From positions 1 through 64,000 of IMG/VR virus record IMGVR_UViG_3300010885_082162: a DNA stretch of 64,000 nt; one strand, given 5' to 3'. This document shows, piece by piece, positions 12,598 to 41,373 of the stretch. A model generated the notes under the pieces. It did not search any database, was not told the origin of the DNA, and saw nothing but the letters and a program-made list of their open reading frames with translations. Source of the DNA: a virus. Taxonomy: Duplodnaviria; Caudoviricetes. Numbering within the stretch: the first letter of the stretch is position 1; each line of letters opens with the position of its first letter. A program made the translations under genes and the position numbers.

Positions 12598-14511
12598 ATG
12601 TTGACAGATTTTAAAGAAGCTATATTTATTAATCCAAATTCTCAGCTAGAGCCTGAAGCTGATATTATATTTGTTGCTGATTTATTTGTAGAAGACTATG
12701 TTGGAGGCGCAGAGCTCACTTCTGAAGCATTAATTGAAGCTTCACCATTTAAAATACAAAAAATTCATTCCTCAAAAGTCAATCTATCAACATTGACACA
12801 AGGCTCCCAAAAGCATTGGATCTTTGGGAATTTTGCGCAACTTAATCCAGAACTCATACCAAGCATAGCTGCAAATCTTAAATATTCAGTACTTGAATAT
12901 GATTATAAGTACTGTCGTTTCAGATCGCCAGAGAAACATGAAGCATCAACCAAGCAACCTTGTGACTGTCATGATAAAATTAATGGCAAATTAATATCAG
13001 CTTTTTACTATGGTGCACAATCTCTATGGTGGATGTCAGAGAAACAAAAGCAGCGATATCACACATTATTTCCATTTTTAGCAGAAAAAGACAACGTGGT
13101 ATTATCCAGTGTTTTTTCAAAAGCTACACTGGCTTACATAAACCACCTTACTAAGTTATCTGCAGACAGTCTAATTGATAGAAAAGGTTGGGTAGTTCTT
13201 GGATCTGACTCTTGGGTTAAAGGTGCACAAGCAGCTAAAGAATGGTGCGAGAATAATCAAAAGCAGTTTGAAGTAGTGTGGAACTTATCGTACGATAAGC
13301 TTCTTGAAAAACTCTCTCATGCTGAAGGTTTTGTTTATCTTCCAGCCGGTGCAGACACATGTCCTCGAATGGTTATTGAAGCAAAGCTTTTAGGCTGCAA
13401 GCTTCAACTCAATAATAATGTCCAGCACGCTTCAGAAGAATGGTTTAATGCCGACGATATCAACTCAATAAGCGAGTATCTCTTTGCTGCACCTACTCTT
13501 TTTTGGAAATGCATAGAAAAAGTCATTAATCATATTTCTAGAATCAGCGGTTACACAACTGCCTACAACTGTATTAATCAGGACTATCCATTTATAGCAT
13601 GTATTGAATCAATGCTTAGATTTTGTGACGAAGTTTGTGTAATTGATGGTGGATCAACAGACGGGACTTGGGAAAAATTAAACGAATTATCACAAAAGAA
13701 TGAAAAATTAAAAGTCAAACAAGTTGTAAGAGATTGGTCTCATCAATATCATGCTGTTTTTGATGGAGCACAAAAAGCTGAAGCAAGAGCAATGTGCACC
13801 GGTGACTTTTGTTGGCAAATGGATTCTGATGAGATTGTTCATGAAGATGATGCAATTAAGATCATTGAGCTGTGCAAGAAGATACCGCCTAAGGTTGATA
13901 TTGTGTCATTGCCTGTTATTGAGTATTGGGGTGGGCCTGACAAAGTTAGATGTGATATACAACCCTGGAAGTGGAGACTTAGTAGAAATCTCTCACACAT
14001 TACGCATGGTATACCAACTGATCTGCGTAGATTTAATGAAAACAAGCAACTATATGCTGCAGAAGGCACTGATGGATGTGATATGATTCATAAAATGACA
14101 GGAGAAAGACTGCCTCATGTGACTTTTCACACATTAGATTCAGAGAAAATGAGACAATCAGCCTGTGCAGGCGATCTATCAGCACTATTGCAATATAGAA
14201 CATGGTTTAACTCTGTCATTAAAAGCCTCCCAGGTGTACACCATTATTCGTGGTATGATCTTTCAAGAAAGATAAAGCTTTACAAGAATTACTGGACAAA
14301 ACACTGGAATTCTCTGTACAATAAATCGCTTGAAGATTCTGCTGATACAAATATGATGTTTGACTTACCATGGTCACAAGTTACAGATGAGATGATAGAG
14401 ACAAGAGCGAAAGAATTAAAAGGCTCAACAGGCGGCTGGGTTTGGCATAGAAAATGGCATGGTCAAAGAACACCGCATATTACAGTTGATGTGTCGGAAC
14501 CAAAGAAATGA
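12598..14511 (+). CDS. Two-domain glycosyltransferase (N-terminal GT-B/GT4-like plus C-terminal GT2-like)
   Basis: GFVYLPAGADTCPRMVIEAKLLGC (GT4-type E motif); ISGYTTAYNC...DEVCVIDGGSTDGT...WQMDSDE (GT2). GAGG SD. Confidence 0.8.
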   Translation: MLTDFKEAIFINPNSQLEPEADIIFVADLFVEDYVGGAELTSEALIEASPFKIQKIHSSKVNLSTLTQGSQKHWIFGNFAQLNPELIPSIAANLKYSVLEYDYKYCRFRSPEKHEASTKQPCDCHDKINGKLISAFYYGAQSLWWMSEKQKQRYHTLFPFLAEKDNVVLSSVFSKATLAYINHLTKLSADSLIDRKGWVVLGSDSWVKGAQAAKEWCENNQKQFEVVWNLSYDKLLEKLSHAEGFVYLPAGADTCPRMVIEAKLLGCKLQLNNNVQHASEEWFNADDINSISEYLFAAPTLFWKCIEKVINHISRISGYTTAYNCINQDYPFIACIESMLRFCDEVCVIDGGSTDGTWEKLNELSQKNEKLKVKQVVRDWSHQYHAVFDGAQKAEARAMCTGDFCWQMDSDEIVHEDDAIKIIELCKKIPPKVDIVSLPVIEYWGGPDKVRCDIQPWKWRLSRNLSHITHGIPTDLRRFNENKQLYAAEGTDGCDMIHKMTGERLPHVTFHTLDSEKMRQSACAGDLSALLQYRTWFNSVIKSLPGVHHYSWYDLSRKIKLYKNYWTKHWNSLYNKSLEDSADTNMMFDLPWSQVTDEMIETRAKELKGSTGGWVWHRKWHGQRTPHITVDVSEPKK

Positions 14512-14870
14512 AAACAAATAAACTTCACGAGACAATCTCAACGCTAGTAACAGAACGCTTAATAAGGCGAAAAGGTGAGAAATTCAATACTTCCGTTTGT
14601 AGTGAAATCTATCAAGATATATTCTTTTCTTTGACAGAAATTTTCAAAGAAGCAAAAACGCCACTTTGTAATGAATCAGTTAATTTTCTAGCTCAGATGT
14701 ATTATGATTCTGTAACAATTAATGATAATCAGCAACTTGACCCGGCTATCTTTACTCAAAGAGCTAAACTAAATAATCTTGAAATAAGAGAATTGGCCCT
14801 TCTTGCAACTATGATGAACGGTACACCATTTGCCTCCCCATTTATTGGTGAGATAAAGAGACGCTCGTGA
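14508..14870 (+). CDS. Hypothetical protein
   Basis: 120 aa; 4-nt ATGA/GTGA overlaps on both sides. Confidence 0.7.
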   Translation: MKTNKLHETISTLVTERLIRRKGEKFNTSVCSEIYQDIFFSLTEIFKEAKTPLCNESVNFLAQMYYDSVTINDNQQLDPAIFTQRAKLNNLEIRELALLATMMNGTPFASPFIGEIKRRS

Positions 14871-15541
14871 TATCGGTAGTTATACCTGTTAGAAATGCTT
14901 CTGCAACAATTCAAGAATCAATACAATCAGTCTTATCTCAAGAAGTCAAGGATCTAGAAATTCTCTGCGTTATAAACGGCACAAATGATAACACAGAAGA
15001 AATAATTAGAACCATTAAAGACGATAGAATTTTAATTCTACATTCAGAGCCAGGTATAGTGCCAGCGCTTAATATGGGTCTAAGAAATTGTAAAGGTGAT
15101 ATTATAGCTCGTCAAGATTCAGATGATATTTGGCTTTCAAATAAGCTAAAAAAGCAGTTAGATTTCTTTGATAAAAATTCTGATATTGACATTTTAGGCA
15201 CTCAATTAAACGTTGTTGATGGTGACAATAAACACATAAGACTAACAAGTTATCCAACAGAACATAGTCAAATAATCGCGAGCCTTCTTGTAGGTGAAAA
15301 TGCTATTGGTCACCCTAGTGTAATTTTTAAGAGAAAGATTTTAGATAAGTGTGCCGGGTACTTTGATCTTTTTCCATTTGCAGAAGATTTAGACTTATGG
15401 TCCCGTTCAATTCCTTGGTACAAGTTTGCAAATCTAAATGAACCGCTAATTAGATACAAACATATTCCAAATCCAAATTATAACCCCCACGTACCAAAAA
15501 TTGTTTCTGCATGGTATAGAATGGTTTACGGAATTAAATGA
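14867..15541 (+). CDS. Glycosyltransferase family 2
   Basis: ISVVIPVRN, ALNMGL, IARQDSDDIW, HPSVIFK, AEDLDLW. GTG start. Confidence 0.92.
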   Translation: MISVVIPVRNASATIQESIQSVLSQEVKDLEILCVINGTNDNTEEIIRTIKDDRILILHSEPGIVPALNMGLRNCKGDIIARQDSDDIWLSNKLKKQLDFFDKNSDIDILGTQLNVVDGDNKHIRLTSYPTEHSQIIASLLVGENAIGHPSVIFKRKILDKCAGYFDLFPFAEDLDLWSRSIPWYKFANLNEPLIRYKHIPNPNYNPHVPKIVSAWYRMVYGIK

Positions 15542-16299
15542 TAACTTACTCACAGCTTGGCAAAAATGGCAGACTTGGAAACCAGATGTTTCAATATGCA
15601 ACTTTATTTTCTGCTGGTTTTACAAGAGGATATCAAATTGGAATTCCAAAAGACCAAAAGCTTAATCAAGTCTTCAGCACTGATAGCGCAGAAAAATTGG
15701 ATGTTGTTTCATGTAATTCTGTTTATAAAGAAAAAGATTTCTCTTTTGACCCAAATATTTTTTTAATTCCTGACGGTACTGATCTATATGGTTATTTTCA
15801 ATCAGGCAATTATTTCAACCATTGCGAAGAAGCGCTTAGAAAAGAATTTCAGTTTTCACAAGAAATTGTGCAAAGAGCAAATGACATTATAGCCAAGCAT
15901 GGAAATATACCCTTATGTTCTATCCATGTAAGAAGAGGAGATTATACAAATCTTTCTCACTATCACACAAACTTAGGCTCTGACTATTACATCCCAGCTT
16001 GCAAGTTAGTTCATGAAAATATACCAAATGTTAAATTTTTAGTATTTTCTGACGATGTCGAATGGTGCAAAAATTCTTTTAAAGATGAAAAATTTATTAT
16101 TGTTGATACTAAAGATGATGCTCTAGACTTATGCATTATGTCTCAATGCCCAGTACATGTAATTGCAAATTCATCTTTTAGCTGGTGGGGCGCTTGGCTT
16201 AGCAGATCAACTGCAGTAGTTGCGCCTAAGCAGTGGTTTGGGAAAAATGGGCCACAAAATTGGCAATCAGTTTACCAGCATGGTTGGATTTTATTATGA
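15538..16299 (+). CDS. Alpha-1,2-fucosyl(colitosyl)transferase, GT11
   Basis: GRLGNQMFQYA, GYFQS, IHVRRGDY, FSDDVEWC, ANSSFSWWGAWL. Confidence 0.93.
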   Translation: MITYSQLGKNGRLGNQMFQYATLFSAGFTRGYQIGIPKDQKLNQVFSTDSAEKLDVVSCNSVYKEKDFSFDPNIFLIPDGTDLYGYFQSGNYFNHCEEALRKEFQFSQEIVQRANDIIAKHGNIPLCSIHVRRGDYTNLSHYHTNLGSDYYIPACKLVHENIPNVKFLVFSDDVEWCKNSFKDEKFIIVDTKDDALDLCIMSQCPVHVIANSSFSWWGAWLSRSTAVVAPKQWFGKNGPQNWQSVYQHGWILL

Positions 16300-17021
16300 G
16301 CATCGCAGTCATCTTTGTAGGCACAGCAAAATACAAACAATTCTTTGATGGTTACTATGAAGGAATAACAAAGAATTTTCTACCAAACAAGCAGAAGACT
16401 ATCTTTGCTTTTACTGATGATCCTTCAGACATTGTCTTTAATAAGCCAAATGTTATCACAAAGAAGATAGAACATCTAAAGTGGCCCTTCATCACTCTGT
16501 ATAGATTTAAATTCATGAGAAGCATTAAACAAGATCTGCAAAAGTTTGATAACATCTTCTTCATTGATGCTGATTTATGGGCTACAAATCCTATCAGTGA
16601 GGATGAATTACCCCTAGACAAAGAACTCATAGGCGTGCAACACCCAGGTTTTGTTAGTAGAATCGGTACATTTGAGACAGACACGCGTTCCAAAGCTAAT
16701 ATCTTTGATGGCAAGTACGATGTGAAGCAATACAGACAAGGATGTTTCTGGGGAGGTAGGAGAAAAGATGTGCTCGATATGGTTGATACTGCAGACGACT
16801 GGGTCGAAGAAGACCTTCAAAATAAAATCGTAGCTGTCTGGCACGATGAGTCGCACATGAACAAGTACTTCTTGCTCAATCCTTCCAAGGTGCACACACT
16901 GCATGCAGGTTTTGCTCAACCTCAGCTTGGTTATGACGACATTAGAAAGACGTGCCCAACAAAGTTTGTGCATCTTCACAAAGAAATGAATGAGTTTCCA
17001 AGATTTGCAGGTGTCAAATGA
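16296..17021 (+). CDS. GT6 alpha-1,3-Gal/GalNAc transferase (ABO-family fold)
   Basis: WPFITLYRF, FFIDAD (DXD), HPGF, YRQGCFWGG, WHDESHMNKYF. Start moved to the ATG at 16296 (ATGA overlap) from the track's 16233. Confidence 0.9.
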   Translation: MSIAVIFVGTAKYKQFFDGYYEGITKNFLPNKQKTIFAFTDDPSDIVFNKPNVITKKIEHLKWPFITLYRFKFMRSIKQDLQKFDNIFFIDADLWATNPISEDELPLDKELIGVQHPGFVSRIGTFETDTRSKANIFDGKYDVKQYRQGCFWGGRRKDVLDMVDTADDWVEEDLQNKIVAVWHDESHMNKYFLLNPSKVHTLHAGFAQPQLGYDDIRKTCPTKFVHLHKEMNEFPRFAGVK

Positions 17022-17965
17022 AGTTTTGTATCGTAGGACCGGGAACAATGCCTATCCCACCAAAGGGTTGGGGTGCCGTAGAAATTCTTATCGACGACTA
17101 TAGAAAGACGTTAATTGATTTAGGGCACCAAGTTGAGATAGTAAACACTAGAAATCCTAATTTAATTGCTGGGTTAGTCAATGCATTAAACCCCGACTTT
17201 GTTCACGTTCAGTATGATGAACACGTTAATGTAATTCCCTACCTTGACTGCAAAAATGTTGCTATAACTAGTCATTATGGTTACTTAGAACAGTCGCATA
17301 GGTGGGACCCAGGTTACAGAAACATCTTCTGGGGATTTGTTAATACTACTGCGAAGATCTTCTGTTTGTCTCCTGGTATAAGAGATGTCTATTCTAAAGC
17401 CGGTATACCGGATGAAAGACTTTTTGTAGTACCGAATGGAGTGAGAACAGATTTATTTAAGTTTGAAAAAGAGTGTAAGTATCCGGACAGAACACTCTAT
17501 CTTGCAAAAGTCGACCCGCGCAAACGACAAGCAAAACTTCAAAATATAGACGGTTTGTACTTTGCAGGAAACTGTGTAGATAATGAATTTAATACAAATA
17601 GTCCAAGATATCTCGGAGAGTGGAACAAAGATAAGCTGTACAATAATCTAACAGAGTATGCAAACTTAGCTCTATTGTCAGATGGTGAAGCACATCCGCT
17701 CGTCTGTCTTGAAGCAATGTCAGCAGGTCTAGGTCTTGTTCTATCGGAATGTGCGACTGCAAATCTTGACCTTAATAAATCATTTGTCGACGTAATTCCC
17801 GAAGCAAAGATTGGAGATATCGAGTTTATTTCCAACGCCTTAGAAGCGAATAGAAAGAAGTCTGTGACTCAAAGAGGCAAGATTAGAGAGTATGCAAAAG
17901 AGTTTGACTGGAAAAACATTATAACTAAGAATTATCTTGCATCAGTGCAAAGGATATTAACATGA
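17018..17965 (+). CDS. Glycosyltransferase family 4
   Basis: IPPKGWGAVE, VPNGV, SDGEAHPLVCLEAMSAGL, FDW near the C-terminus. Confidence 0.88.
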   Translation: MKFCIVGPGTMPIPPKGWGAVEILIDDYRKTLIDLGHQVEIVNTRNPNLIAGLVNALNPDFVHVQYDEHVNVIPYLDCKNVAITSHYGYLEQSHRWDPGYRNIFWGFVNTTAKIFCLSPGIRDVYSKAGIPDERLFVVPNGVRTDLFKFEKECKYPDRTLYLAKVDPRKRQAKLQNIDGLYFAGNCVDNEFNTNSPRYLGEWNKDKLYNNLTEYANLALLSDGEAHPLVCLEAMSAGLGLVLSECATANLDLNKSFVDVIPEAKIGDIEFISNALEANRKKSVTQRGKIREYAKEFDWKNIITKNYLASVQRILT

Positions 17966-18777
17966 ATGCAACTGTAGTAACTGCGCTATACGACATTGGA
18001 AGAGAGAAAATTGATGGAAGAGGGATGAATCAATACTACGATTGGTTTAAGAAAACTCTTCTTTTGCAATGCCCAATGGTAATTTATTGTGAAAGCAGTC
18101 ATATAGATTTTATTCAAAAGAATAGACCGAATAATCTACAAACAAAAATTGTAGTGCAAGAGCTTGTTGACATTCCATATTATCACTTGAAAAATAGAAT
18201 GGATGAAGTTCTATTAAATGAAGACTATCAAAAAAAAGTCTCAGACCCTAATAGAATAGAATGTAAAACAAGTCTATATTCTATAATTCAATACTCAAAG
18301 TTTCCTTGGGTTCTTAATGCAGTCAGAGAGAACTATTTTAATAGTGATTACTTCTTCTGGCTGGATGCAGGAGCATCTCGATTTATCCCAGACTTGGATA
18401 TATCTTCTCTAAAATTTCCGGGAGAAAATTTCATGAACCAAGTTAAGATGCACACAGGAAAAATACTGTACCAGATGTACTTATTTCCATATACAGATCT
18501 CTCGCTTAAAAGCGAAGATATAACGCATGATTATCTTTATGACAACAGATCTTATGTGTGGGGCGGCATGTTTGGCGTAGATGCATCGTCAATTGAAAAA
18601 TTAGCTAGTCTTATTGACATCGTTCTAAAGCAAGAAATGCTTGAAAAAAACCTTTTGAATAATGAACAAATTGCTATTGGATTCTTGTTAAAAGATCACA
18701 AAGATAAATTTCTAATTCTAAAAAATGATAATAGAATTCATAGAAATTTTGAGTTGATTTATCAATCATTTGTGTGA
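17962..18777 (+). CDS. WlaTC/HtrL(YibB)-family glycosyltransferase-like protein
   Basis: TVVTALYDIGR, QYSKF, NYFNSDYFFWLDAG, NNEQ. Confidence 0.8.
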   Translation: MNATVVTALYDIGREKIDGRGMNQYYDWFKKTLLLQCPMVIYCESSHIDFIQKNRPNNLQTKIVVQELVDIPYYHLKNRMDEVLLNEDYQKKVSDPNRIECKTSLYSIIQYSKFPWVLNAVRENYFNSDYFFWLDAGASRFIPDLDISSLKFPGENFMNQVKMHTGKILYQMYLFPYTDLSLKSEDITHDYLYDNRSYVWGGMFGVDASSIEKLASLIDIVLKQEMLEKNLLNNEQIAIGFLLKDHKDKFLILKNDNRIHRNFELIYQSFV

Positions 18778-18799
18778 ACGAAGCACTGTAGAAACTAAT

Positions 18800-19156
18800 A
18801 TGAAAATTTTAAGAATTTGTTTTGATATTGATAAAACTCTTGTTACATTCCCAGATGTTGAGGGAGATTATTCTACTGTTAAACCAATCCATAAGAATAT
18901 TGAATTTGTAAGACTGGTAAAATCTTTGGGACACACAGTTATTCTTTATACTGCGAGAAAAATGGGAACTTATTCAGGTAACTCTGGTCGTGCACTAGCT
19001 GAAATTGGTAAAATAACTTTTGAAACTTTAGAAAAATTTAATATACCTTATGACGAAATTTATTTCGGTAAACCTAGCGCAGATTTTTACATTGATGATA
19101 AAGCAGTGTATGCTTTTGACAACCTTGAACATGCAACAGGTATTAAAAATAATTAA
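18800..19156 (+). CDS. HAD-family phosphatase (capsule-locus EcbF-like)
   Basis: CFDIDKTL, LYTAR, YFGKP, FYIDDK. Start moved to the ATG at 18800. Confidence 0.82.
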   Translation: MKILRICFDIDKTLVTFPDVEGDYSTVKPIHKNIEFVRLVKSLGHTVILYTARKMGTYSGNSGRALAEIGKITFETLEKFNIPYDEIYFGKPSADFYIDDKAVYAFDNLEHATGIKNN

Positions 19157-19183
19157 TAATTTAATAAGGAAAATGGAAAATGT

Positions 19184-19861
19184 ATGAACTATAAGAGAGA
19201 TAAAAATTTCCCTATTTCTTGGACAGAGTGGGACGAATGTCAAAAATATGAGTTAGACTCGTGGAGTTACAACTTAAATAACCCAGAGCTTTTTTTAGGA
19301 ATTGAGAACCATATCTTTATCGGTGGATTTATGGGTCTTGAGTTTGAAGATAACAAAGTATCAAATGCAAGAGGTAAAAGAATTATTGAGTATGGAGCCG
19401 GTGTTGTTGGCTATACTGTTAGATCAGATAATTTAGGTCCATCATTTGCTGTTGAACCGCTTAATATGCCGCAGTGGGTGAAAGATAGATACGAGCAACA
19501 TAACATAAAATTTATTCAAGCGCCGGGGGAGATTGTTAATTTGGATTTTCTTGGCCTAACTGAAAAACTTGATGAGTCGTGGATGGCTGGTGTTTTACAA
19601 CACGTCTTGGACCCAATTGCAATATTAGAAAATATGGCAAATACTGCTAATTTAGTGAGAATTAGTGAATGGGTTGATCTTCCTCCGCACGAAGGGCATC
19701 CATGGACTGTAACTGAAGATATGATTACTTCGACTCTAGACAAGCTTGGGTCTAGAATAAAAGTTGAAAAAGTTTTTGTTGACCAAATGTGTCACACTCA
19801 ACTAAGGGGCTGGTTAGTAAATGTGATTTACGATACATCGGCGTCAAATAAAAAACTTTGA
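19184..19861 (+). CDS. Putative class I SAM-dependent methyltransferase
   Basis: IIEYGAG motif I, AVEP, GE, VLQHVLDP. Confidence 0.65.
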   Translation: MNYKRDKNFPISWTEWDECQKYELDSWSYNLNNPELFLGIENHIFIGGFMGLEFEDNKVSNARGKRIIEYGAGVVGYTVRSDNLGPSFAVEPLNMPQWVKDRYEQHNIKFIQAPGEIVNLDFLGLTEKLDESWMAGVLQHVLDPIAILENMANTANLVRISEWVDLPPHEGHPWTVTEDMITSTLDKLGSRIKVEKVFVDQMCHTQLRGWLVNVIYDTSASNKKL

Positions 19862-19866
19862 TTTAA

Positions 19867-20883: not shown

Positions 20884-20887
20884 ATAT

Positions 20888-24042: not shown

Positions 24043-24043
24043 T

Positions 24044-24718: not shown

Positions 24719-24720
24719 TT

Positions 24721-27296: not shown

Positions 27297-27300
27297 CATT

Positions 27301-31863: not shown

Positions 31864-31884
31864 TTTCCTTTAACTGAATAAAAT
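31856..31884 (+). promoter_or_regulatory. Putative sigma70-type promoter for the radical SAM genes
   Basis: TTGCAC (31856-31861), 17-nt spacer, TAAAAT (31879-31884). Confidence 0.55.
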
Positions 31885-31918
31885 TAGCTATAAGCCGATT
31901 TCTAAAGGGAAGATAACT

Positions 31919-33355: not shown

Positions 33356-33373
33356 TTAGCTGAAGGATTTAAC

Positions 33374-35242
33374 GTGCTAAAAAAGTTTAAACAGCTTGAA
33401 ATTATCAATATACCCCTAAAAAATCTTGAAACTAAAAAAGCTATTTACAGCAAGTTAGAGACAACTTTTAAAAATGGATGTCGAAAAATTTTATTGGTAA
33501 ATTCACTACCTTTTAACACCGAGAACTTTGAACTGAGACAAGCAAGAAACTCTAGGTATTATGCATGGCCACCTTACGGAATAGCTGTGCTTTGTAAAGT
33601 CTTAAGAGACAGAGGGTATGAAGTTAAACTTATAGATTTTAATCTTGAAATCTTGGACCTAATCAACAGAAGAAGTGACATTCAAGATAATGAATCTGCT
33701 AGAGAGCTTGCTGAGAATCATTGGAAGTCTAGTTTTAAACAGTCTGTAAATAATTTTCAACCTGACTTAGTAGGTCTAACATGCATGTTTACCATGGGAC
33801 ATGAAATGTTGATAAGAACTGCTAATTTTGCAAAAGAAGAATTTCAGATTCCTACTATCGTTGGCGGAGTACATGTAACTAATGCAACTAAATTTGTGCT
33901 CGGTGAAAGCAAGAATATTGACTTTGCCGGCTTATATGAATCCGATGTTAGTTTTTGCGATTTTATTGATGTTATAAACAAAAAACTTGATTTAAATAAA
34001 TTAAATCAAATAGCAACCATTATTAATGGTGAGTATATCGCTATAGACTCTAGCGCGACGCCAACTGCAGATGATCTAAACATAATACCCGATTATGATT
34101 CACTAGATCTCAGCTTGTATAGCAACTTAGGTGAAGTCGGATCTTATAGATCATGGCTGCCCAAACAGATAAAGTCGACTTCAATTTTGTCAAACAGAGG
34201 ATGTCGAGCGAGATGCTCATTCTGCAGCGTAAGAAATTTTAATGGTTTCGGTGTTAGAGCAAGAAGCATAGAGTCAGTTATTGATGAGCTAACAAAAGTA
34301 AAAGAAAAATATGGAATCGGTCATGTTACGTGGATAGATGATGATCTGTTCTATGATCAAGAAAGAGCCTTGCAGCTTTTTAATGAAATGGCTGATAGAA
34401 ACTTAAACATAAAATGGTGTGCATCAAATGGAATAATTGCCTCTGCAGCTGCAAAAACACCAGCTCTAATAGAGACAGCTGCACGTTCTGGTTGCATTGG
34501 AATGACTTTTGGATTAGAATCCGGAAGCGATGCTATATTAAAAGCTGTACATAAACCATCCAAAGTTCAGCACTATTACATAGTAGGAGATCTTCTAAAG
34601 AAGTACCCACAAATTTTTACTAGAGGATTTTTAATAATTGGTTTTCCGAATGAGACCTTGAGCCAAATGATGCAGACTGTCAAGATGGCGCAAGATGTTG
34701 GACTTGACTGGTATGGCATACAGCTTTTATCTCCACTGCCTTCAACTGAAATTTATGAAGAAATGGTTTCATTGGGTCTTATTGATGATATCAATTTGAA
34801 AAAGAATAAAGAGGGTGACGGTTCTAAATTGTTCGTTGTTAGACAGGCAGAGAAACAAAGAGAACAAGAGCAGCTTCAAAAAAATAAAGTTGAAAAATTT
34901 GTTAATCTTTTTGAGGGCGACTGGAATGTGATACCAACCAGAGAACAGCTTCACGACATTTGGCTGCTAGTTGATTATTGGATTAATTACGCACCAATTT
35001 TGGAGCTAAAAGACAGAGATAGACTTGTTAAGAAAAAAATGATACTAACTGATATTTGTGATAGAATGACAAAAGATAATCCTCTAGCTAGCTTATTTCT
35101 AAGCGTTGTTGACCAAAAACTTGGAAATGTTGAAGAATCGAAAAAGAGAAATACTATCGCAAAATCTTATCTAAATTCTTCTGAATACTGGAAATCGAGA
35201 TTTGATGCACTTAATCTTAATGGTCTAATGGAGTTAACTTGA
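33374..35242 (+). CDS. Cobalamin-binding radical SAM protein (class B-type architecture)
   Basis: PPYGIAVL, PDLVGLT, IVGGVHVT (B12 domain); RGCRARCSFC, IDDD, FGLESGS, IIGFPNET. GTG start. Confidence 0.9.
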   Translation: MLKKFKQLEIINIPLKNLETKKAIYSKLETTFKNGCRKILLVNSLPFNTENFELRQARNSRYYAWPPYGIAVLCKVLRDRGYEVKLIDFNLEILDLINRRSDIQDNESARELAENHWKSSFKQSVNNFQPDLVGLTCMFTMGHEMLIRTANFAKEEFQIPTIVGGVHVTNATKFVLGESKNIDFAGLYESDVSFCDFIDVINKKLDLNKLNQIATIINGEYIAIDSSATPTADDLNIIPDYDSLDLSLYSNLGEVGSYRSWLPKQIKSTSILSNRGCRARCSFCSVRNFNGFGVRARSIESVIDELTKVKEKYGIGHVTWIDDDLFYDQERALQLFNEMADRNLNIKWCASNGIIASAAAKTPALIETAARSGCIGMTFGLESGSDAILKAVHKPSKVQHYYIVGDLLKKYPQIFTRGFLIIGFPNETLSQMMQTVKMAQDVGLDWYGIQLLSPLPSTEIYEEMVSLGLIDDINLKKNKEGDGSKLFVVRQAEKQREQEQLQKNKVEKFVNLFEGDWNVIPTREQLHDIWLLVDYWINYAPILELKDRDRLVKKKMILTDICDRMTKDNPLASLFLSVVDQKLGNVEESKKRNTIAKSYLNSSEYWKSRFDALNLNGLMELT

Positions 35243-36252
35243 AAGCAATTATTACAGGTATAACTGGCATGGTAGGCTCACACTTAGCAGACTTTTTGCT
35301 TGAGAACACGGACTGGGAAATTCACGGCATGATGAGATGGTTCGAACCAACAAAAAATATTGAGCATCTCTCACGAAGAATAAATGATAAAGATCGAATA
35401 GAACTACACAATGCTGACCTTAATGATTTTGCAAGCCTGATGTCACTTATAAAAAAAGTCAAACCAGACTATGTGTTTCATTTAGCAGCTCAAAGTTATC
35501 CAAAGACTAGTTTTGACTCTCCACTTGAGACTTTGCAAACCAACATAATTGGAACATGCGCACTGCTAGAGGCAATTAGACTCTCAGAAATTGACTTAAA
35601 AAAAATTACTGTACATGTCTGCGCAAGCTCCGAAGTCTTTGGAAGAGTTTCAAAAGATAAACTTCCAATTCACGAAGATGTTAACTTTCATCCAGCTTCA
35701 CCGTACGCAATTTCCAAAGTTGGCACTGATTTAATTGGAAGATTTTATGCTGAAGCATATGGAATGAGAGTCATGACGACTAGAATGTTTACACATACGG
35801 GACCTCGCAGAGGTGACGTTTTTGCTGAATCTTCATTTGCTAAGCAAATTGCGCTAATAGAAGCCGGTAAAATACCGCCTATTTTAAAAGTAGGTAATCT
35901 AGATTCTCTTAGAACATGGGCAGATGTTCGTGATGCAGTTAGAGCATATTACATGCTTGTGACTAATAATCCTGTCGCAGGTGAGTACTACAACATTGGC
36001 GGCTCTTATACGTGTTCTGTAAGAGACATGTTAAATTTTCTTCTTAAAAATTCTACAGTTAAAAACATACAAGTTGTCGTAGATCCGGATAGGCTTAGGC
36101 CTATTGATGCTGATCTTCAGATACCTGACACAAATAAGTTTAAGAGCCACACCGGTTGGCAGCCTGAGATTAGTTTTGAAAAAACAATGTTAGAATTATT
36201 ACAATATTGGCGTAATGAAGTAAGAAAAGATACTGCCGAAATTGTAAGATAA
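35239..36252 (+). CDS. gmd: GDP-mannose 4,6-dehydratase-like
   Basis: ITGITGMVGSHLA, HLAAQS, ASSEVFG, PASPYAISK, VGNLDSLRTWADVRD, RLRPID. TTG start overlapping the upstream stop. Confidence 0.8.
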   Translation: MKAIITGITGMVGSHLADFLLENTDWEIHGMMRWFEPTKNIEHLSRRINDKDRIELHNADLNDFASLMSLIKKVKPDYVFHLAAQSYPKTSFDSPLETLQTNIIGTCALLEAIRLSEIDLKKITVHVCASSEVFGRVSKDKLPIHEDVNFHPASPYAISKVGTDLIGRFYAEAYGMRVMTTRMFTHTGPRRGDVFAESSFAKQIALIEAGKIPPILKVGNLDSLRTWADVRDAVRAYYMLVTNNPVAGEYYNIGGSYTCSVRDMLNFLLKNSTVKNIQVVVDPDRLRPIDADLQIPDTNKFKSHTGWQPEISFEKTMLELLQYWRNEVRKDTAEIVR

Positions 36253-36255
36253 ACT

Positions 36256-37029
36256 ATGACAAAAAAGATATTAGTAATTGGTGAATCTTGTAAAGATGTT
36301 TTCATCTACGGTAGTGTTGAAAGATTTGCTCCCGAGGCACCTGCGCCCGTATTTTTAGAATTATCTAGTAATGAAAATCCAGGCATGGCTGCCAATGTTC
36401 AAAACAACATAATGTCTTTAAGCGTTTCATGCGACATTATGACTAATTCAAACTGGGAAACAATTAAAAAAACAAGATATATGGACGATAGAACAAATCA
36501 TATGTTTGTTAGAGTCGATACCAATGATAAAAGTTACTCAAAATTTATTCTTAACAGTGAAACGCTTGACAAGATTTTAGGTTATGACGTTGTTGTCATA
36601 TCTGACTATGACAAAGGCTTTATAACAAGCGATGACATCTTGAGAATTTCATCTTCACATCAAAATGTTCTCTTAGATACTAAAAAAGTCTTAGGAGATT
36701 GGTGTAGAAATGTGAAATACATAAAAATCAATAGAGACGAATATGAAAAATCTAAAGATGCAATTGATGAAAATATTTCTAGCAAACTAATCATAACTCA
36801 AGGTAAAGAAGGCTGTGTTTTTCAAAATAAGCTTTTAAAGGTAAAAAAAGTAAGCATAAGAGATGTCTCAGGAGCCGGTGATACTTTTATGGCAGCGCTA
36901 GCAGTTAAGATTGCAAATGAAGTAAAAATTGAAGGTGCAATAAAGTTTGCAAATGAATGCGCAACAGTCGTCGTACAAAAAAGAGGAGTATCAGTCATCA
37001 ATGATAGTATGGACAAACGGCTGCTTTGA
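36256..37029 (+). CDS. Heptose-7-phosphate kinase (HldA/RfaE domain I, PfkB family)
   Basis: LVIGESCKD...RFAPEAPAP, GMAANV, KKTR, SDYDKG, DVSGAGDTF, VVQKRG. Confidence 0.88.
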   Translation: MTKKILVIGESCKDVFIYGSVERFAPEAPAPVFLELSSNENPGMAANVQNNIMSLSVSCDIMTNSNWETIKKTRYMDDRTNHMFVRVDTNDKSYSKFILNSETLDKILGYDVVVISDYDKGFITSDDILRISSSHQNVLLDTKKVLGDWCRNVKYIKINRDEYEKSKDAIDENISSKLIITQGKEGCVFQNKLLKVKKVSIRDVSGAGDTFMAALAVKIANEVKIEGAIKFANECATVVVQKRGVSVINDSMDKRLL

Positions 37030-37396
37030 TTGCATTCATGCAGGTCACGTTGAGATACTTGACTACGCCAGAAAAAAAGGTCATAAACTGATTGTTGGTA
37101 TCGACTCTGACGATAGAGTGAAAAAATCAAAAGGTGCCAACAGACCTATTCATAGTCAAGATAGCAGAAAAAGAGTGCTTGAGTCGATTAAACACGTAGA
37201 TGAAGTTGTAATTTTTTCTTCTGACGAAGAGCTTGTAGAATGTATTAAAAAATCTGGCGCATCTCTCATTGTCGTTGGATCAGACTACATAGATAAAAAA
37301 GTAATAGGCTCTGAATTAGTAGAAGTTAATTTTTTTAAGAGAATACCGGAATTTTCAAGCACAAAAATAATAGAAAAAGGAGGCCTCAATGAGTAG
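37001..37396 (+). CDS. Heptose-1-phosphate nucleotidyltransferase (HldC/RfaE domain II)
   Basis: WTNGCFDCIHAGH (HxGH), VGIDSD, KGANRPI, SSTKII. Start 37001 with GAGGAG upstream. Confidence 0.88.
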   Translation: MIVWTNGCFDCIHAGHVEILDYARKKGHKLIVGIDSDDRVKKSKGANRPIHSQDSRKRVLESIKHVDEVVIFSSDEELVECIKKSGASLIVVGSDYIDKKVIGSELVEVNFFKRIPEFSSTKIIEKGGLNE

Positions 37397-37754
37397 TTTT
37401 AAAAAATTTCTTCCTGAAGAACACCCAAAAGGATGGGGGAAAGAGTTGTGGATCACAAACACAGACAAATATTGTGGAAAAATATTGTGTTTTAATAAGG
37501 GCAAGAGATGTAGTTGGCATTATCATGAAATAAAAGATGAAGTTTTTTATCTTTTAAACGGTTTAATGGAAATAACAGTTTCTGAGTCAAATGATAGAGA
37601 AAAAGCAGAAACATTCTTTCTAAAAAAAGGAGAAACTTTTCACGTAAAGACCGGGCTGAGACATCAAATGCTAGCAATTGAAGACTCAGAATTACTTGAA
37701 GTTTCAACACGACATTTTGAAGATGATAGTATTAGAATTATTAAGGGTGACTAA
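37389..37754 (+). CDS. Cupin-fold sugar isomerase-like protein
   Basis: KGWGKELWI, SWHYHEIKDE, RHQM, LEVST. Confidence 0.8.
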   Translation: MSSFKKFLPEEHPKGWGKELWITNTDKYCGKILCFNKGKRCSWHYHEIKDEVFYLLNGLMEITVSESNDREKAETFFLKKGETFHVKTGLRHQMLAIEDSELLEVSTRHFEDDSIRIIKGD

Positions 37755-38050: not shown

Positions 38051-38872
38051 ATGCAAGAAAATACGTCATTTGACGTTCTTCCTACGGGAAAACCGCACGT
38101 TTCATTCTCTGAAGTGAAGCTTTGGAAAGAATGTTCTTATCATCACAATTTAGTTCACATCAAAAAATTAAGTCTTTTCAAGCCTTCACCGGCACTTGAT
38201 TTTGGCACTGCAGTCCATGCTTCTTGCGAACATTATCTTTTAACTCGCGAAATGAAACCTGAAATTGCTTTTGACCACATGGAAAAAGCATGGGCAACAA
38301 ATTCAACACCTGAAAATCCTGACTTTACCCAAGCTTCATTAGCAAAATCAAAAGCAGAAGCTACAGCAATTCTTTCTGAACTCCCCCCATTTCTTGATGA
38401 AACATTTCCTGAATGGGAAACAATTTCTGCTGAACATCAATTATACGAACCAATCACCAACCACCCACATGCTTTTAAGGGGTTTATTGACGGCATCATT
38501 AAAGCAAAAGGAAAACGTGGCGAAACAATCTATTGGATTATAGATTGGAAAACTGCAGCCCGCGGGTGGGATCGTCATAAACGCTCAGACCCAATGATCG
38601 CTGCACAGCTGGGTCTCTACAAAAACTATTGGTGTCAAAAAAACCCAGAGATTCCATTTAAGAATGTTCGAGCAGCATTTGTGATTTTAAAGAAAGCAGC
38701 AAAACCAGGCGAACATTGCGAGCTATTTTCAGTATCACTGGGTGAAGTTCCAATTACTAGATCTTTAAAAGTCGTAAGCAATATGTTAACTTCTGTTAAA
38801 AAAGGAATTGCTTTAAAGAATAGAGATTCTTGTATGTGGTGCGAGTTTAAAAATACAGCGCACTGCACTTAA
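38051..38872 (+). CDS. PD-(D/E)XK nuclease, RecB/AddB/Cas4-like with Fe-S staple cysteines
   Basis: SFSEVKLWKEC, FGTAVH, KGFIDG, IIDWKT, QL..Y, C-terminal CMWCEFKNTAHC. Confidence 0.88.
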   Translation: MQENTSFDVLPTGKPHVSFSEVKLWKECSYHHNLVHIKKLSLFKPSPALDFGTAVHASCEHYLLTREMKPEIAFDHMEKAWATNSTPENPDFTQASLAKSKAEATAILSELPPFLDETFPEWETISAEHQLYEPITNHPHAFKGFIDGIIKAKGKRGETIYWIIDWKTAARGWDRHKRSDPMIAAQLGLYKNYWCQKNPEIPFKNVRAAFVILKKAAKPGEHCELFSVSLGEVPITRSLKVVSNMLTSVKKGIALKNRDSCMWCEFKNTAHCT

Positions 38873-40181: not shown

Positions 40182-41373
40182 TAATAACTTTTTTGTCAAT
40201 ATGAACAGTAGAAAAAAAGTCTTGCTTAGAGCACCCGTATTGACCCAGTCTGGTTATGGTGTTCATTCTCGACAAATTGCTCGTTGGCTTCTTTCAAAGT
40301 CTCACCTTGATGTTTCCGTTCAAGCTCTGCCTTGGGGTTCAACACCTTGGTTGATTAATAAAGATTTGTCCGGAGGCTTAATAGGCAAGATCATGGAAAA
40401 GACAGTTGACCCAACAGGTCAAAAATACGATGCTACTATTCAGGTTCAATTACCAAATGAGTGGGATGTAAGCATGTCTGATACTAACATCGGCATCTCT
40501 GCAATTGTTGAGACAGATATCTGTAATCCTGCGTGGGTGGCCGCATGTAATAGAATGTCTAAAGTAATTGTACCTTCTACGTTCTGTCAAAGTGTTTTAA
40601 GAAACTCTGGGCAATTAACGTCTGAAGTAAAAGTCATACCCGAATCATTCCCAGACGAGATATTAGAGCTTAAAGCCACACGCGTCGACGATATTAAATT
40701 TCAGACCCAGTTTAACTTTCTAGTAATTGGACAGATTACAGGAAAGAACGCAGAAAATGATAGAAAAAATATCTTTTATACTATTAAGTGGTTTTGCGAA
40801 ACATTTAATAAAGACAACGACGTAGGCCTAGTGATTAAAACAAACATGGGTCGAAACACCAAGATAGACAGGCAGGTAGTTGAGAATACTATTAAAGCTG
40901 TCTTGACGGAAATTAAGAAGAAAAAAGAACCAAAAATCTATCTTCTACACGGCGAAATGTCAGATTCTGAGATGGCATCTCTTTATCGACATCCACAGAT
41001 AAAAGCTCTAATAACTTTATCAAGAGGTGAAGGTTATGGTTTACCTATTCTAGAGGCAGCAGCTAGTGGCCTACCTGTCATTGCCACAAACTGGTCTGGT
41101 CATCTTGACTTTATGTCAAAAGGTAAGTTTATTGAAATCGATTTTAATCTTGGCAACGTGCATCCAACAAGAATAGATAATGAAATTTTTATTGAAAAAG
41201 CAAGATGGGCTAATCCAATTGAAGAAGATTTTAAGAAGAAAATATTAAAATTCAAATCAGCCAGCTCGTTACCCAAAGAGTGGGCAGCAAATCTCGCTGT
41301 TAAGATTAAGCAAGATTATAATTTTTCTGCCATTTCAAAGATTTATGATGAAGAGCTGAGTGTTATTTTATGA
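40174..41373 (+). CDS. Glycosyltransferase family 4
   Basis: SGYG, VIVPS, RKNI, GEGYGLPILEAAASGLPVIATNWSG. Confidence 0.9.
   Translation: MFDNNFFVNMNSRKKVLLRAPVLTQSGYGVHSRQIARWLLSKSHLDVSVQALPWGSTPWLINKDLSGGLIGKIMEKTVDPTGQKYDATIQVQLPNEWDVSMSDTNIGISAIVETDICNPAWVAACNRMSKVIVPSTFCQSVLRNSGQLTSEVKVIPESFPDEILELKATRVDDIKFQTQFNFLVIGQITGKNAENDRKNIFYTIKWFCETFNKDNDVGLVIKTNMGRNTKIDRQVVENTIKAVLTEIKKKKEPKIYLLHGEMSDSEMASLYRHPQIKALITLSRGEGYGLPILEAAASGLPVIATNWSGHLDFMSKGKFIEIDFNLGNVHPTRIDNEIFIEKARWANPIEEDFKKKILKFKSASSLPKEWAANLAVKIKQDYNFSAISKIYDEELSVIL

Follow-up and report, generated by a model that had tools for sequence, protein, structure and literature searches.

A modular glycan-gene island in a large aquatic phage and its possible role in cytoplasmic glycosylation of tail proteins

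What does a phage build with an island of glycosyltransferases (GTs) and nucleotide-sugar enzymes that contains no lipid-carrier or export gene, and on which acceptor? This question was raised by the window analysed here, i.e. the whole stretch of 64,000 nucleotides, which makes up the initial 64 kb of a fragment of 72 kb, itself covering about 22% of the genome of an uncultured aquatic jumbo phage. The earlier note had described about 29 kb of co-oriented glycan genes, and 34 mostly overlapping plus-strand ORFs were indeed found packed into positions 12598-41373. Its count of roughly ten GTs was fair, with seven above the Pfam gathering cut-off and two further candidates. About 15 genes encode nucleotide-sugar enzymes. 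Non-sugar genes are also present, namely those for DJ-1/PfpI, HemN, a B12 radical-SAM protein, PhyH, and a PD-(D/E)XK exonuclease. The phage genes named as neighbors could be retraced on the left (PIN-PhoH and ClpP, together with a DinG-like helicase) and on the right (gp55-like late sigma, gp25/gp6-like baseplate wedge proteins), with the exception of Hc1, for which the small left-flank ORFs gave no Pfam match. A phage-bacterial chimera is unlikely because the GC content is even throughout the region and the gene order of the island is repeated on independent contigs.

The island is modular, with ends fixed in the lineage, a widely shared sugar cassette, and a GT block that differs between relatives. 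The fixed ends are a 637-aa GT2 on one side and a PD-(D/E)XK nuclease with a pair of GT4 enzymes on the other. Both bounds are kept in a jumbo relative of about 280 kb, in which the 637-aa GT2 shares 49% identity over 631 aa and again forms the island boundary. Weak PDB matches of this protein were chondroitin synthase and GmaR. The locus is best explained as a variable glycan-building locus of a large clade of aquatic myophages, among whose members are Flavobacterium phage immuto, Microcystis phage Mel-JY01, and jumbo relatives of at least 280 kb. The left part of the island contains the following features, assigned by protein family unless stated otherwise:

12598..14511, +, 637-aa GT2-family glycosyltransferase (Pfam Glycos_transf_2, residues 333-443; no family assigned to the N-terminal half), lineage-conserved left boundary
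14508..22427, +, variable GT block, first member a 120-aa ORF
14867, +, GT2 (Pfam, above gathering cut-off)
15538, +, GT11 (Pfam, above gathering cut-off)
16233 (likely start 16296), +, GT6 (Pfam, above gathering cut-off)
17018, +, GT4 of the variable block (Pfam, above gathering cut-off)
17962, +, HtrL_YibB, GT candidate
18770, +, HAD-like protein
19184, +, phrog_3603
19867, +, candidate GT-like protein (virus-only GT-like cluster, an atlas lead only)
20888, +, ORF of the block with no family given
21591, +, SDR-like protein

A single contig, the near-identical L011, was found to carry close copies of the variable block (79-98% identity). Distant homologues (31-36%) of the GT11 and of the 18770 protein occur in other contigs and in phage P-TIM68; beyond these two, no member of the block recurred among the other 55 loci. 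The middle part of the island consists of three modules:

22473..30977, +, nucleotide-sugar cassette (family assignments)
31085..35242, +, variable oxidative/radical insert with a PhyH dioxygenase, HemN, and a B12-binding radical-SAM protein
35239..37754, +, sugar-activation module with a Gmd-like 4,6-dehydratase, PfkB kinase, nucleotidyltransferase, and cupin (family assignments)

The cassette encodes a 133-aa protein, a methyltransferase, DJ-1/PfpI, a cupin, a HAD-like protein, ThDP E1 alpha and beta, an RmlC-like epimerase, a ColD-like 3-dehydratase, and two Fcl-like SDRs with a short SDR between them, the first Fcl-like SDR (ORF 28391) having its likely start at 28475. Most of these genes recur at 50-78% identity in 17-47 IMG/VR contigs; the methyltransferase (22856) has a counterpart on L011 only. 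ColD was the top PDB match of the 27301 protein (2gms, E 6.5e-59), which keeps the catalytic His of ColD where Lys is usual. The combination of a ColD-like enzyme with ThDP E1 alpha/beta was absent from the GenBank phage records searched, and the ThDP E1 alpha query gave only four distant matches (23-27% identity) in these records. The PhyH/HemN/radical-SAM insert is rare among relatives. Its HemN, which reached 351 bits on TIGR00538 compared to an NCBIfam cut-off of 325, shares 50-58% identity with cellular HemN, and one homologue is a HemN-PhyH fusion. In the activation module the kinase resembles HldE domain I and the nucleotidyltransferase HldE domain II. The kinase is 36-50% identical to proteins of the T4-like cyanophages S-SM2, P-TIM68, S-CAM1/3, and P-SSM5, and the kinase, nucleotidyltransferase, and cupin all have homologues at 44-53% identity in the sugar cluster of P-TIM68. 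In total, the island holds two Fcl-like SDRs, two cupins, two HAD-like proteins, and one short SDR. The right end and the genes beyond it are:

38051..38872, +, PD-(D/E)XK exonuclease (Pfam PDDEXK_1; PHROG exonuclease families)
38913-40181, +, GT4a (Pfam Glycos_transf_1; EX7E motif kept)
40174-41373, +, GT4b (Pfam Glycos_transf_1; EX7E motif kept)
41370..41666, +, 98-aa protein, single N-terminal membrane helix followed by coiled-coil tail (translation, hydropathy scan)
41701..49657, +, late module with gp55-like late sigma, conserved proteins, and gp25-like and gp6-like baseplate wedge proteins (PHROG 234, 43, 219, 10646)
49606..64000 and on to 71956 of the contig, +, distal tail/fibre proteins, candidate acceptors (Laminin_G_3 domains)

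Each GT4 has more than 4400 metagenomic homologues, of which the best 120, excluding the clusters of the window itself, share 68-85% (GT4a) and 55-88% (GT4b) identity. The pair is about 32% identical to its counterparts in immuto and Mel-JY01, where the exonuclease lies just upstream, either directly or with one small gene between; the same synteny was seen in four MAG-binned phage contigs and in the 280-kb relative. Despite this synteny, the exonuclease is probably a DNA-metabolism gene. Around the kept nuclease and GT4 pair the sugar genes differ between immuto, which has a Bacteroidota host, and Mel-JY01, which has a cyanobacterial host. In closer relatives the pair also stays beside late and baseplate genes. 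Within the reach of a search of representative genomes of 185,579 prokaryote species, GT4b relatives were found on only 4 contigs, all of them phage-syntenic, and no cellular O-antigen locus with a GT4b relative was found.

GT4a and GT4b are predicted to form a heterodimer, in which a C-terminal tail would dock onto the partner. The complex prediction scored 0.78 (runs 0.78, 0.78, and 0.82) compared to 0.00 for the best control, with a partner pLDDT of at least 89 and at least 84% of contacts common between runs; 58 of 80 solved complexes reached the mark of 0.78, as did 2 of 110 mismatched pairs. Such a pass between neighboring genes is weak evidence and says nothing on the acceptor. The top PDB fold match of both enzymes was B736L of chlorovirus NY-2A. 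Structural neighbors include the small-molecule transferases MshA, BshA, TreT, and sucrose-phosphate synthase, and GtfA and SdgB ranked in the middle. The chlorovirus match speaks for an acceptor encoded by the phage, as in the reading proposed below; that the fold matches are generic for GT4 counts against this reading.

We tentatively favor, as a reading that falls just short of probable, that the island serves to glycosylate, within the cytoplasm, tail proteins of the phage itself. Sugar synthesis and attachment by the GT4 enzymes are based on family assignments and the complex prediction, and we infer the steps of extension and the acceptor. In the infected cell, soluble enzymes would produce rare sugars in activated form in the cytoplasm by two routes. 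In the first, a sugar, perhaps a heptose, would be phosphorylated and then nucleotidylated by the HAD-like proteins, the PfkB kinase, and the HldE-II-like nucleotidyltransferase. In the second, a GDP-type 6-deoxy and 3,6-dideoxy sugar would arise via the Gmd-like 4,6-dehydratase, the ColD-like 3-dehydratase, and the Fcl-like reductases, with a two-carbon branch perhaps added by the ThDP E1 alpha/beta pair. The GT4a/GT4b heterodimer, possibly with the 637-aa GT2, would put on the first sugars, and the strain-variable GTs (GT2, GT11, GT6, GT4, and others) would extend and cap the glycan. The likeliest acceptor would be Ser/Thr of [ST]-G-S in the distal tail/fibre proteins, some of which have ConA-like lectin domains. 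With a tail-protein acceptor, no lipid carrier, flippase, or polymerase would be needed, and the product would be a strain-specific sugar coat over the host-recognition apparatus.

The tripeptide [ST]-G-S is about 4-6x in excess in the source phage, and this excess is confined to the post-baseplate proteins. Observed counts and shuffled expectations in the distal tail proteins were 6/0.87, 11/1.76, 14/2.26, 12/3.9, 9/2.6, and 8/2.0, with about 5 occurrences in all remaining proteins combined. The order of residues matters, since SGS was enriched 5.1x and TGS 3.5x compared to 0.7x-1.5x for reorderings such as GSS, SGT, and SSG. The same excess was found in immuto and Mel-JY01, both of which have the GT4 pair and a gp6-like protein 30-32% identical to that of the late module (as does, for gp6, a 484-kb uncultured phage). 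No excess was found in the two control phages, T4 (2 observed versus 6.1 expected) and P-TIM68 (22 versus 19.8), in which the GT4 pair is absent. Many of the sites are kept in homologues down to 50% identity. Alternatively, [ST]-G-S after hydrophobic residues could be an inherited beta-helix or fibre turn motif of homologous proteins. Of the two acceptors suggested at the outset, virion protein and DNA, the former is circumstantially favored by the tripeptide excess in tail proteins of phages with the GT4 pair and by this pair, a predicted heterodimer, having been found only in phage context; the latter is disfavored by LC-MS data on immuto discussed below.

The claims that the GTs are soluble and that multi-pass proteins are missing held up when every ORF of 40 aa or more on the whole 72-kb contig was scanned for hydropathy, as this revealed no multi-pass protein. 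The hydrophobic N-termini of the GT6 and of the SDR 28391 are artefacts, arising where the ORFs extend upstream beyond the likely start Met. The sole real membrane protein near the island is the single-pass 98-aa protein that separates the GT4 pair from the late sigma gene and shares 52-83% identity with proteins of 9 related contigs. The island itself contains no lipid-carrier or export genes. As the contig represents about 22% of the genome, missing machinery was tested in relatives. The Bac_transf (priming transferase) and Wzx families were absent in every complete relative tested, namely immuto, Mel-JY01, two complete IMG/VR genomes of 173-186 kb, and the complete jumbo genome of about 280 kb; WecA, Wzy (Wzy_C), and ABC-2 families were absent in the first four of these. 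Few ORFs of the 280-kb genome have at least 3 hydrophobic segments, and none of them matches a transporter or transferase family. GTs of O-antigen/LOS pathways are normally soluble or peripheral, and LOS-type extension on lipid A-core proceeds without Wzx, Wzy, or a priming transferase. Hence, the lack of these components is not diagnostic, and a phage could borrow primer, flippase, MsbA, and ligase from its host. The observation of the earlier note was confirmed and its reading partly supported; cytoplasmic assembly does not follow from missing exporters.

The main rival, which appears possible but doubtful, is remodelling of the host envelope. Soluble phage enzymes would feed rare sugars and GT steps into a lipid-linked host pathway, with Und-PP-linked O-antigen/capsule or lipid A-core/LOS as targets, and export would be left to the host primer, flippase/MsbA, ligase, and Lpt. 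The altered cell surface would block superinfection or re-adsorption of progeny. This is the published reading of the P-SSM2 'LPS', jumbo cyanophage, and pelagimyophage host recognition clusters, and the variability of the island among close relatives fits a receptor arms race. Moreover, HldE-like kinase and nucleotidyltransferase, HtrL_YibB, GT11, GT6, and Gmd/ColD/Fcl-like enzymes are typical of LPS/O-antigen loci, which counts against glycosylation of tail proteins. However, the GT4 pair has no cellular homologue in context and spans phages of different host phyla with very different envelopes, although it could instead act on a universal host intermediate, e.g. Und-PP-GlcNAc. Complete relatives lack any dedicated membrane step among the families searched, and the island lies in the late/structural region, not among early genes; replacement of surface glycans would presumably be slow within a single lytic cycle. 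The tail-specific [ST]-G-S excess would also be left unexplained.

It is less likely, and in our view improbable, that another soluble acceptor is served, i.e. that a host cytoplasmic protein is glycosylated or a free or secreted glycoside or oligosaccharide is made, resembling a secondary metabolite or compatible solute. The small-molecule transferases among the GT4 neighbors would fit, as would the likeness of the ThDP E1 pair, radical-SAM proteins, PhyH, and deoxysugar enzymes to natural-product sugar tailoring, and a second cluster in cyanophages was suggested by Iyer et al. to have a metabolite role. Nine GT-like genes, however, point to an oligosaccharide on a defined acceptor, no gene for aglycone biosynthesis or export was found on the contig, and both tail-gene adjacency and motif excess would have no explanation. 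Glycosylation of modified phage bases against restriction, as in T4, which glucosylates 5hmC, is very improbable: the nuclease constantly beside the GT4 pair, a weak Pfam match to the GT4-conflict family, and phage GT-B enzymes known to glycosylate DNA (10.1101/2023.12.21.572611) speak for it. Against it, the nuclease falls into ordinary families of phage exonucleases, and genes for a hydroxymethylase or of the TET/JBP or DpdA type were absent among those ORFs of the window that were scanned. A set of nine GTs together with branched dideoxy sugars is far beyond any known DNA glycan. In immuto, which has the nuclease and GT4 pair, LC-UV-MS of digested DNA gave dA, dC, and dT, with fdPreQ1 in place of dG, and no glycosylated nucleoside was reported.

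Sugar islands of this kind are already known from large aquatic phages, and to call the pathway exceptional for a phage was overstated. P-SSM2 carries 24 such genes in its 'LPS' clusters (Sullivan 2005, PMC1079782), and the host recognition clusters of pelagi- and cyanomyophages average 44.6 kb in pelagimyophages (Zaragoza-Solas 2020, PMC7029224). Together with those of jumbo cyanophages (Iyer et al. 2021, PMC7824862), these clusters share with the island SDR epimerase/dehydratases, cupins, a PfkB kinase, a HIGH-type nucleotidyltransferase, HAD phosphatases, many GT families, and radical-SAM cassettes, as well as tail-gene neighbors and variability between relatives; export genes are likewise not reported in their descriptions. 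Cyanophage genes are 36-53% identical to the island kinase, nucleotidyltransferase, and cupin. Such islands have been read as modifying the host O-chain, itself a putative function (PMC1079782, PMC7824862, PMC7029224). In contrast, our phage belongs to a different, immuto-like and jumbo lineage, and the boundaries formed by the GT4 pair and the 637-aa GT2 are particular to the island in comparison with cultured cyanophages, as is the ColD-like and ThDP E1 alpha/beta cassette in comparison with the GenBank phage records searched.

Serotype-converting phage systems (GtrABC, Oac, phage Wzy) share sugar and GT chemistry with the island, and so do the O-antigen and capsule loci of bacteria that depend on Wzx/Wzy or ABC export. 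This common chemistry includes a colitose-type route and the GT11/GT6 combination known from E. coli O86, but the defining membrane parts of these systems are missing in the island and in complete relatives, as far as families were searched. The autotransporter heptosyltransferases TibC/AAH, which use ADP-heptose (PMC4358343), and GtfA-GtfB, the O-GlcNAc transferase of serine-rich-repeat proteins (PDB 4pqg), are soluble and O-glycosylate repetitive adhesins in the cytoplasm; their targets are Ser residues of surface proteins with beta-helical or repetitive structure that have yet to be exported. The island resembles the former in its putative ADP-heptose-type donor pathway, although a GT9/BAHT-type enzyme is absent, and the latter provides a precedent for a two-subunit GT4 enzyme. 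GtfB is non-catalytic, whereas both island GT4s keep EX7E, and their predicted interface is a C-terminal tail docking on the partner. The gene set of the island is far larger than that of mycobacteriophages with 1-4 GTs. Capsid and tail glycosylation in mycobacteriophages was reportedly described by Freeman et al. in 2023, a study cited in PMC11256854. In chloroviruses, glycosylation of the capsid protein takes place in the cytoplasm. This protein is glycosylated by virus-encoded GTs (PMC9614988); the candidate sequon of the island, by comparison, is [ST]-G-S and lies on tail fibres, not on the capsid. Like the mycobacteriophage case, the systems of the chlorovirus major capsid protein and Megavirinae fibrils (PMC9614988, PMC10117803, PMC4691112) resemble the island in soluble viral GTs and viral pathways for rare sugars of bacterial type, in the lack of a lipid-carrier route, and in a conserved core step with variable outer sugars.

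The region 12598-41373 comprises 34 co-oriented ORFs on the plus strand, most of which overlap. All functional assignments are homology-based. Seven glycosyltransferases (GTs) exceeded the Pfam gathering cut-offs, namely two GT2, one GT11, one GT6, and three GT4 enzymes. HtrL_YibB and the 19867 protein, the latter by a virus-only GT-like family, are GT candidates. Sugar enzymes are represented by a Gmd-like dehydratase, an RmlC-like epimerase, two Fcl-like SDRs, a short SDR, ThDP E1 alpha/beta, a PfkB kinase (HldE domain I-like), an HldE domain II-like nucleotidyltransferase, cupins, HAD-like proteins, and a methyltransferase. DJ-1/PfpI, HemN, a B12 radical-SAM protein, PhyH, and a PD-(D/E)XK exonuclease have no obvious sugar role. 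A PADLOC run on the pair of terminal GT4 genes, the nuclease and others gave no relevant match. Comparison with 56 IMG/VR loci, cultured phages, and a genome of ~280 kb resolved the island into five modules.

Organization of the island and its flanks
Left flank, minus strand: PIN-PhoH fusion (5103-6479; PIN_4 at residues 5-141, PhoH at residues 226-442), DinG-like helicase, ClpP
Left end of the island, plus strand: module 1, 637-aa GT2, 49% identity along its entire length in the 280-kb relative, whose island it likewise bounds
14508-22427, plus strand: module 2, GT block, close copies on a single near-identical contig only
22473-30977 and 35239-37754, plus strand: module 3, nucleotide-sugar cassette, 50-78% identity in 17-47 viral contigs
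Between the two parts of module 3, plus strand: module 4, insert of PhyH, HemN, and B12 radical-SAM genes, rare
38051-38872, 38913-40181, and 40174-41373, plus strand: module 5, PD-(D/E)XK nuclease, GT4a, and GT4b, followed directly by the genes for a small membrane protein and late sigma in closer relatives
Right flank, beyond the island: gp55-like late sigma factor, gp25- and gp6-like baseplate wedge proteins

Synteny of the nuclease-GT4 unit extends to the Flavobacterium phage immuto (host LMO8), the Microcystis phage Mel-JY01, the 280-kb genome, and four phage contigs binned in MAGs. In the 280-kb genome, the ends of the island are kept while the middle differs. The kinase, nucleotidyltransferase, and cupin part shares 36-53% identity with genes of T4-like cyanophages, e.g. 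P-TIM68 and S-SM2. P-TIM68 matched the nucleotidyltransferase, a cupin, a HAD-like protein, and GT11, and the PfkB kinase shares 36-50% identity with kinases of S-SM2, P-TIM68, S-CAM1/3, P-SSM5, and S-T4. Megablast with 23 kb of island sequence found no match among GenBank phages. The most conserved gene of the cassette encodes a 133-aa protein without an assigned family (22473-22874), which has ~78% identity in 37 viral contigs and matched virus-dominated clusters only in an atlas search. The largest non-coding gap of the island (37755-38050, 296 nt) divides the sugar-activation module from the nuclease/GT4 unit.

The window covers the initial 64 kb of its source record, a linear IMG/VR viral contig of 72,038 bp with a CheckV completeness of 22%, which implies a genome of ~330 kb. 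The gp6-like protein shares 30-32% identity with its counterparts in immuto, Mel-JY01, and a 484-kb uncultured phage, and the phage is a T4-like yet distant aquatic myophage. The earlier note had considered that the contig might be a phage-bacterium chimera. We rejected this, since independent contigs show the same synteny and the GC content is uniform over the region. An Hc1 gene, which the same note had placed in the left flank, was not confirmed by our search. Since the tRNA scan found none, a host hint from this source is lacking, and the HemN homologues carried no usable host signal. The psbA gene was not found in five cassette-bearing genomes, which are not cyanophages of the psbA-carrying kind. 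Between the PhoH and helicase genes, on the other strand, lies a 92-aa ORF (6545-6823, plus strand) that consists of sigma-70 region 4 alone; it could be a regulator of the anti-sigma-like or appropriator type. A 45%-identical copy adjoins PhoH in the 280-kb relative.

This relative was recovered by scanning genome representatives with GT4b. The hit resided on the 305,838-bp contig NHDW01000006.1 (loci L083-L098), binned in a Methylococcaceae MAG. Its initial 25.66 kb recurs at the contig end with at least 99.8% identity save for the first kilobase, and the contig therefore represents a complete jumbo phage genome of ~280 kb. It is a phage genome of the same lineage, in full synteny with the window, that was mis-binned into a bacterial MAG.

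The DegT-family protein was rejected as an aminotransferase. It is a ColD-type 3-dehydratase in which a catalytic His replaces the usual Lys. The best PDB match was ColD (2gms, E 6.5e-59, residues 5-373), a PMP-dependent enzyme, and the query His aligns with ColD His188, where the PLP-binding Lys would be expected. This position was located via the H188N entry 3b8x in the same alignment. The Gmd-like enzyme reached 199 bits where the model cut-off is 415, and the Fcl-like enzymes 164 and 130 bits where it is 500; the family is correct in these cases and the substrate assignment putative. As a tblastn search of GenBank phages with E1 alpha yielded only four distant matches, the combined ColD-like and ThDP-E1 cassette is absent from cultured phages. 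It predicts an unusual chemistry, a ThDP E1-type two-carbon branching of the ColD-type product, which would be of interest to glycoenzymologists whichever acceptor is used. HemN exceeded the NCBIfam HemN cut-off (351 versus 325 bits) and shares 50-58% identity with cellular HemN. A metagenomic homologue of 742 aa (P0145) is a HemN-PhyH fusion mirroring the PhyH gene adjacent to HemN in the island insert (31085-35242), which suggests joint action of both proteins in tetrapyrrole metabolism or sugar tailoring. On the sister contig L002, HemN is just 64% identical while the neighboring genes reach 93-98%.

A hydropathy scan of all ORFs of at least 40 aa on the 72-kb contig detected no multi-pass protein, and two hydrophobic N-termini in the island were artefacts of over-extended ORF calls. 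Bac_transf (PF02397), Glycos_transf_4 (WecA, PF00953), Polysacc_synt (Wzx, PF01943), Wzy_C (PF04932), and ABC2_membrane (PF01061) had no match in the records of five relatives: the complete immuto and Mel-JY01 genomes, two IMG/VR genomes rated 100% complete (186 kb, and 173 kb with terminal repeats), and one IMG/VR record rated 47% complete. Positive controls of these searches behaved as expected. Both complete IMG/VR genomes possess the sugar cassette, GT4b, and the same baseplate lineage. PF02397 and PF01943 were absent throughout the MAG containing the 280-kb relative. The phage genome itself encodes six distinct ORFs with at least three hydrophobic segments, none of which matched a transporter or transferase family, and its small 3-TM ORFs had no GtrA match. 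One protein of NHDW01000006.1, 1618 aa long, has about ten hydrophobic segments and matched no Pfam family. The observation that the island lacks lipid-carrier and export genes was borne out for the 72-kb contig, and the families searched in the relatives had no match there. Judged from these gene inventories, the lineage as a whole appears to be devoid of them within the families and genomes covered. In contrast, Wzx/Wzy- or ABC-dependent O-antigen and capsule loci have an initiating transferase (WbaP or WecA), which the contig (~22% of the genome) and the searched relatives lack, and a flippase, a polymerase/ligase or an ABC-2 permease, none of which occurred in the five records. Serotype-converting Gtr systems consist of GtrA (small, 4 TM), GtrB (a bactoprenol GT2 with TM), and a multi-pass GtrC, and the hydropathy scan revealed no ORF of these types on the 72-kb contig. 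Between GT4b and the late sigma gene, a 98-aa protein (41370-41666) has a single N-terminal membrane helix and a coiled-coil tail; 9 related contigs carry it with 52-83% identity. It might anchor the GT pair at the membrane or have nothing to do with it.

GT4a and GT4b have more than 4400 metagenomic homologues each. The best 120, leaving out the window's own clusters, share 68-85% identity with GT4a and 55-88% with GT4b, and conservation of the pair roughly equals that of the baseplate. The closest GT4b homologues reside on contigs of 204-297 kb, among them P0002, P0006, and P0025 on contigs of 204,815, 273,244, and 297,898 bp; a metagenome scan with GT4b recovered contigs of up to 55 kb. Among representative genomes of 185,579 prokaryote species, a search reaching fairly close relatives found the GT4 family on phage-syntenic contigs only. 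Prediction of a GT4a/GT4b complex gave a score of 0.78 (runs 0.78, 0.78, and 0.82) compared to 0.00 for the best control; 58 of 80 solved complexes but only 2 of 110 mismatched pairs reach this mark. The runs share at least 84% of their contacts, with a partner pLDDT of at least 89. In the predicted complex, GT4b residues 254-262 form the docking site of the GT4a C-terminal tail (residues 414-422). The modeling supports binding of GT4a to GT4b, short of proving it. AlphaFold models of the two proteins (pLDDT 81 and 87) had the same best fold match, the chlorovirus NY-2A GT B736L, and otherwise matched generic GT4 folds. These predicted matches leave the acceptor unspecified. GtfA/GtfB is likewise a complex of two GT4-fold subunits, a likeness that in our case exists in silico. 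However, one subunit of GtfA/GtfB is non-catalytic, whereas GT4a and GT4b both retain the EX7E motif, and GtfA (4pqg) ranked 23 among the fold matches of GT4b and was absent among the matches listed for GT4a. Features specific to GtfA/GtfB are not shared by the GT4 pair.

Six large post-baseplate proteins contain 6, 11, 14, 12, 9, and 8 copies of the motif [ST]-G-S, where per-protein shuffles predicted 0.9-3.9. About 50 other proteins on the contig have ~5 copies altogether. SGS was 5.1-fold and TGS 3.5-fold enriched, whereas reorderings including GSS, SGT, and SSG occurred at 0.7-1.5 times expectation. Residues preceding the motif are hydrophobic, and many sites are kept in homologues down to 50% identity. 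The same excess is present in post-baseplate proteins of immuto and Mel-JY01. T4 and P-TIM68 do not have the GT4 pair; the motif was counted 2 times in T4 structural proteins versus 6.1 expected, and 22 times in P-TIM68 versus 19.8 expected. As a sequence pattern, the excess would fit a glycosylation sequon and equally fits an inherited beta-helix turn motif. Two of the motif-rich distal tail proteins (51110-54652 and 55715-59389) contain Laminin_G_3 (ConA-like lectin) domains, which suggests carbohydrate binding by the tail.

The T4 late-promoter octamer TATAAATA occurred once in positions 1-64000 versus 7.4 sites expected from shuffles and was rejected as a marker of expression timing. The phage has a gp55-like late sigma factor, yet its lineage must use a different late-promoter consensus. 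Scans for sigma-70 promoters and terminators from 30.5 to 48 kb, including the gap 37755-38050, remained at chance level, and no common motif was seen in the intergenic gaps.

Several features fit a phage-borne acceptor better: the GT pair turned up solely in phage contexts and is kept across phages of different host phyla, the island has fixed ends and a swapped middle, it lies in the late/tail region, and the motif excess is specific to tail proteins. We tentatively favor the reading that the island glycosylates the phage's own tail proteins, at somewhat less than even confidence. Its more specific form is possible at a lower level of confidence: a lipid-carrier-free protein O-glycosylation system common to thousands of aquatic myophages including jumbo phages, in which GT4a/GT4b primes [ST]-G-S and the island adds a strain-specific glycan. 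The conserved heterodimer would prime Ser/Thr within the motif on tail-fiber proteins, and the swappable island would then assemble the glycan from rare sugars made by the phage. Candidates are a branched 3,6-dideoxy or heptose-type sugar and a blood-group-like Fuc/Gal cap. Remodeling of the host envelope is a serious if somewhat doubtful competitor. The GTs of O-antigen/LOS-type pathways are soluble and, to our knowledge, LOS-type synthesis requires no Wzx, Wzy or priming transferase, so that this explanation is viable for an island without these genes. Host-surface remodeling is also the published reading for P-SSM2, for jumbo cyanophages, and for the host recognition clusters of pelagimyophages. 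The features listed for a phage-borne acceptor speak less well for it. Another soluble acceptor is unlikely. DNA, which had been proposed alongside virion protein, is highly improbable, since published LC-UV-MS of DNA from the relative immuto showed dA, dC, dT, and fdPreQ1 only and hence no glycosylated nucleoside, no base-functionalizing enzyme was present among the scanned ORFs of the window, and the nuclease is of an ordinary phage exonuclease type.

Few regions of abundant aquatic phages are as large and as variable as their sugar-gene islands, which have carried the label 'LPS genes' for twenty years without experimental backing. If the glycan resides on tail fibers, the host-recognition organs of these phages would bear a variable sugar coat comparable to the bacterial O-antigen. 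This could alter views of host range, receptor binding, resistance to host glycan-directed defenses, and particle stability in a very large viral clade, and would extend virus-autonomous glycosylation from giant viruses and a few actinophages to phages of Gram-negative bacteria and cyanobacteria. Because two cultured relatives carry the conserved GT4 pair, the acceptor question is directly testable.

The view of the earlier note that the size of the island would be exceptional for a phage was not upheld, since islands of this kind are already known as P-SSM2-type 'LPS' clusters or host recognition clusters of large aquatic myophages (PMC1079782, PMC7824862, PMC7029224). Like these, it combines SDRs, a PfkB kinase, a nucleotidyltransferase, cupins, and several GT families in a T4-like phage, and the similarity extends to sequence homology, as its kinase, nucleotidyltransferase, cupin, HAD-like protein, and GT11 match cyanophage genes. 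The published clusters are hypervariable and located beside tail genes; the island is variable as well, with baseplate and tail genes directly downstream. It differs from them in the phage lineage, the GT4 pair with its predicted heterodimer, the GT2 boundary, the ColD-like and ThDP-E1 cassette absent from cultured phages, and the complete-genome evidence for no recognizable encoded membrane step. Virion glycosylation in chloroviruses, Megavirinae, and mycobacteriophages relies on soluble virus-encoded GTs, and the GTs of the island are likewise soluble. By analogy, the proposed system would work like virion glycosylation in these viruses or like the cytoplasmic adhesin glycosylation by TibC and GtfA/B.
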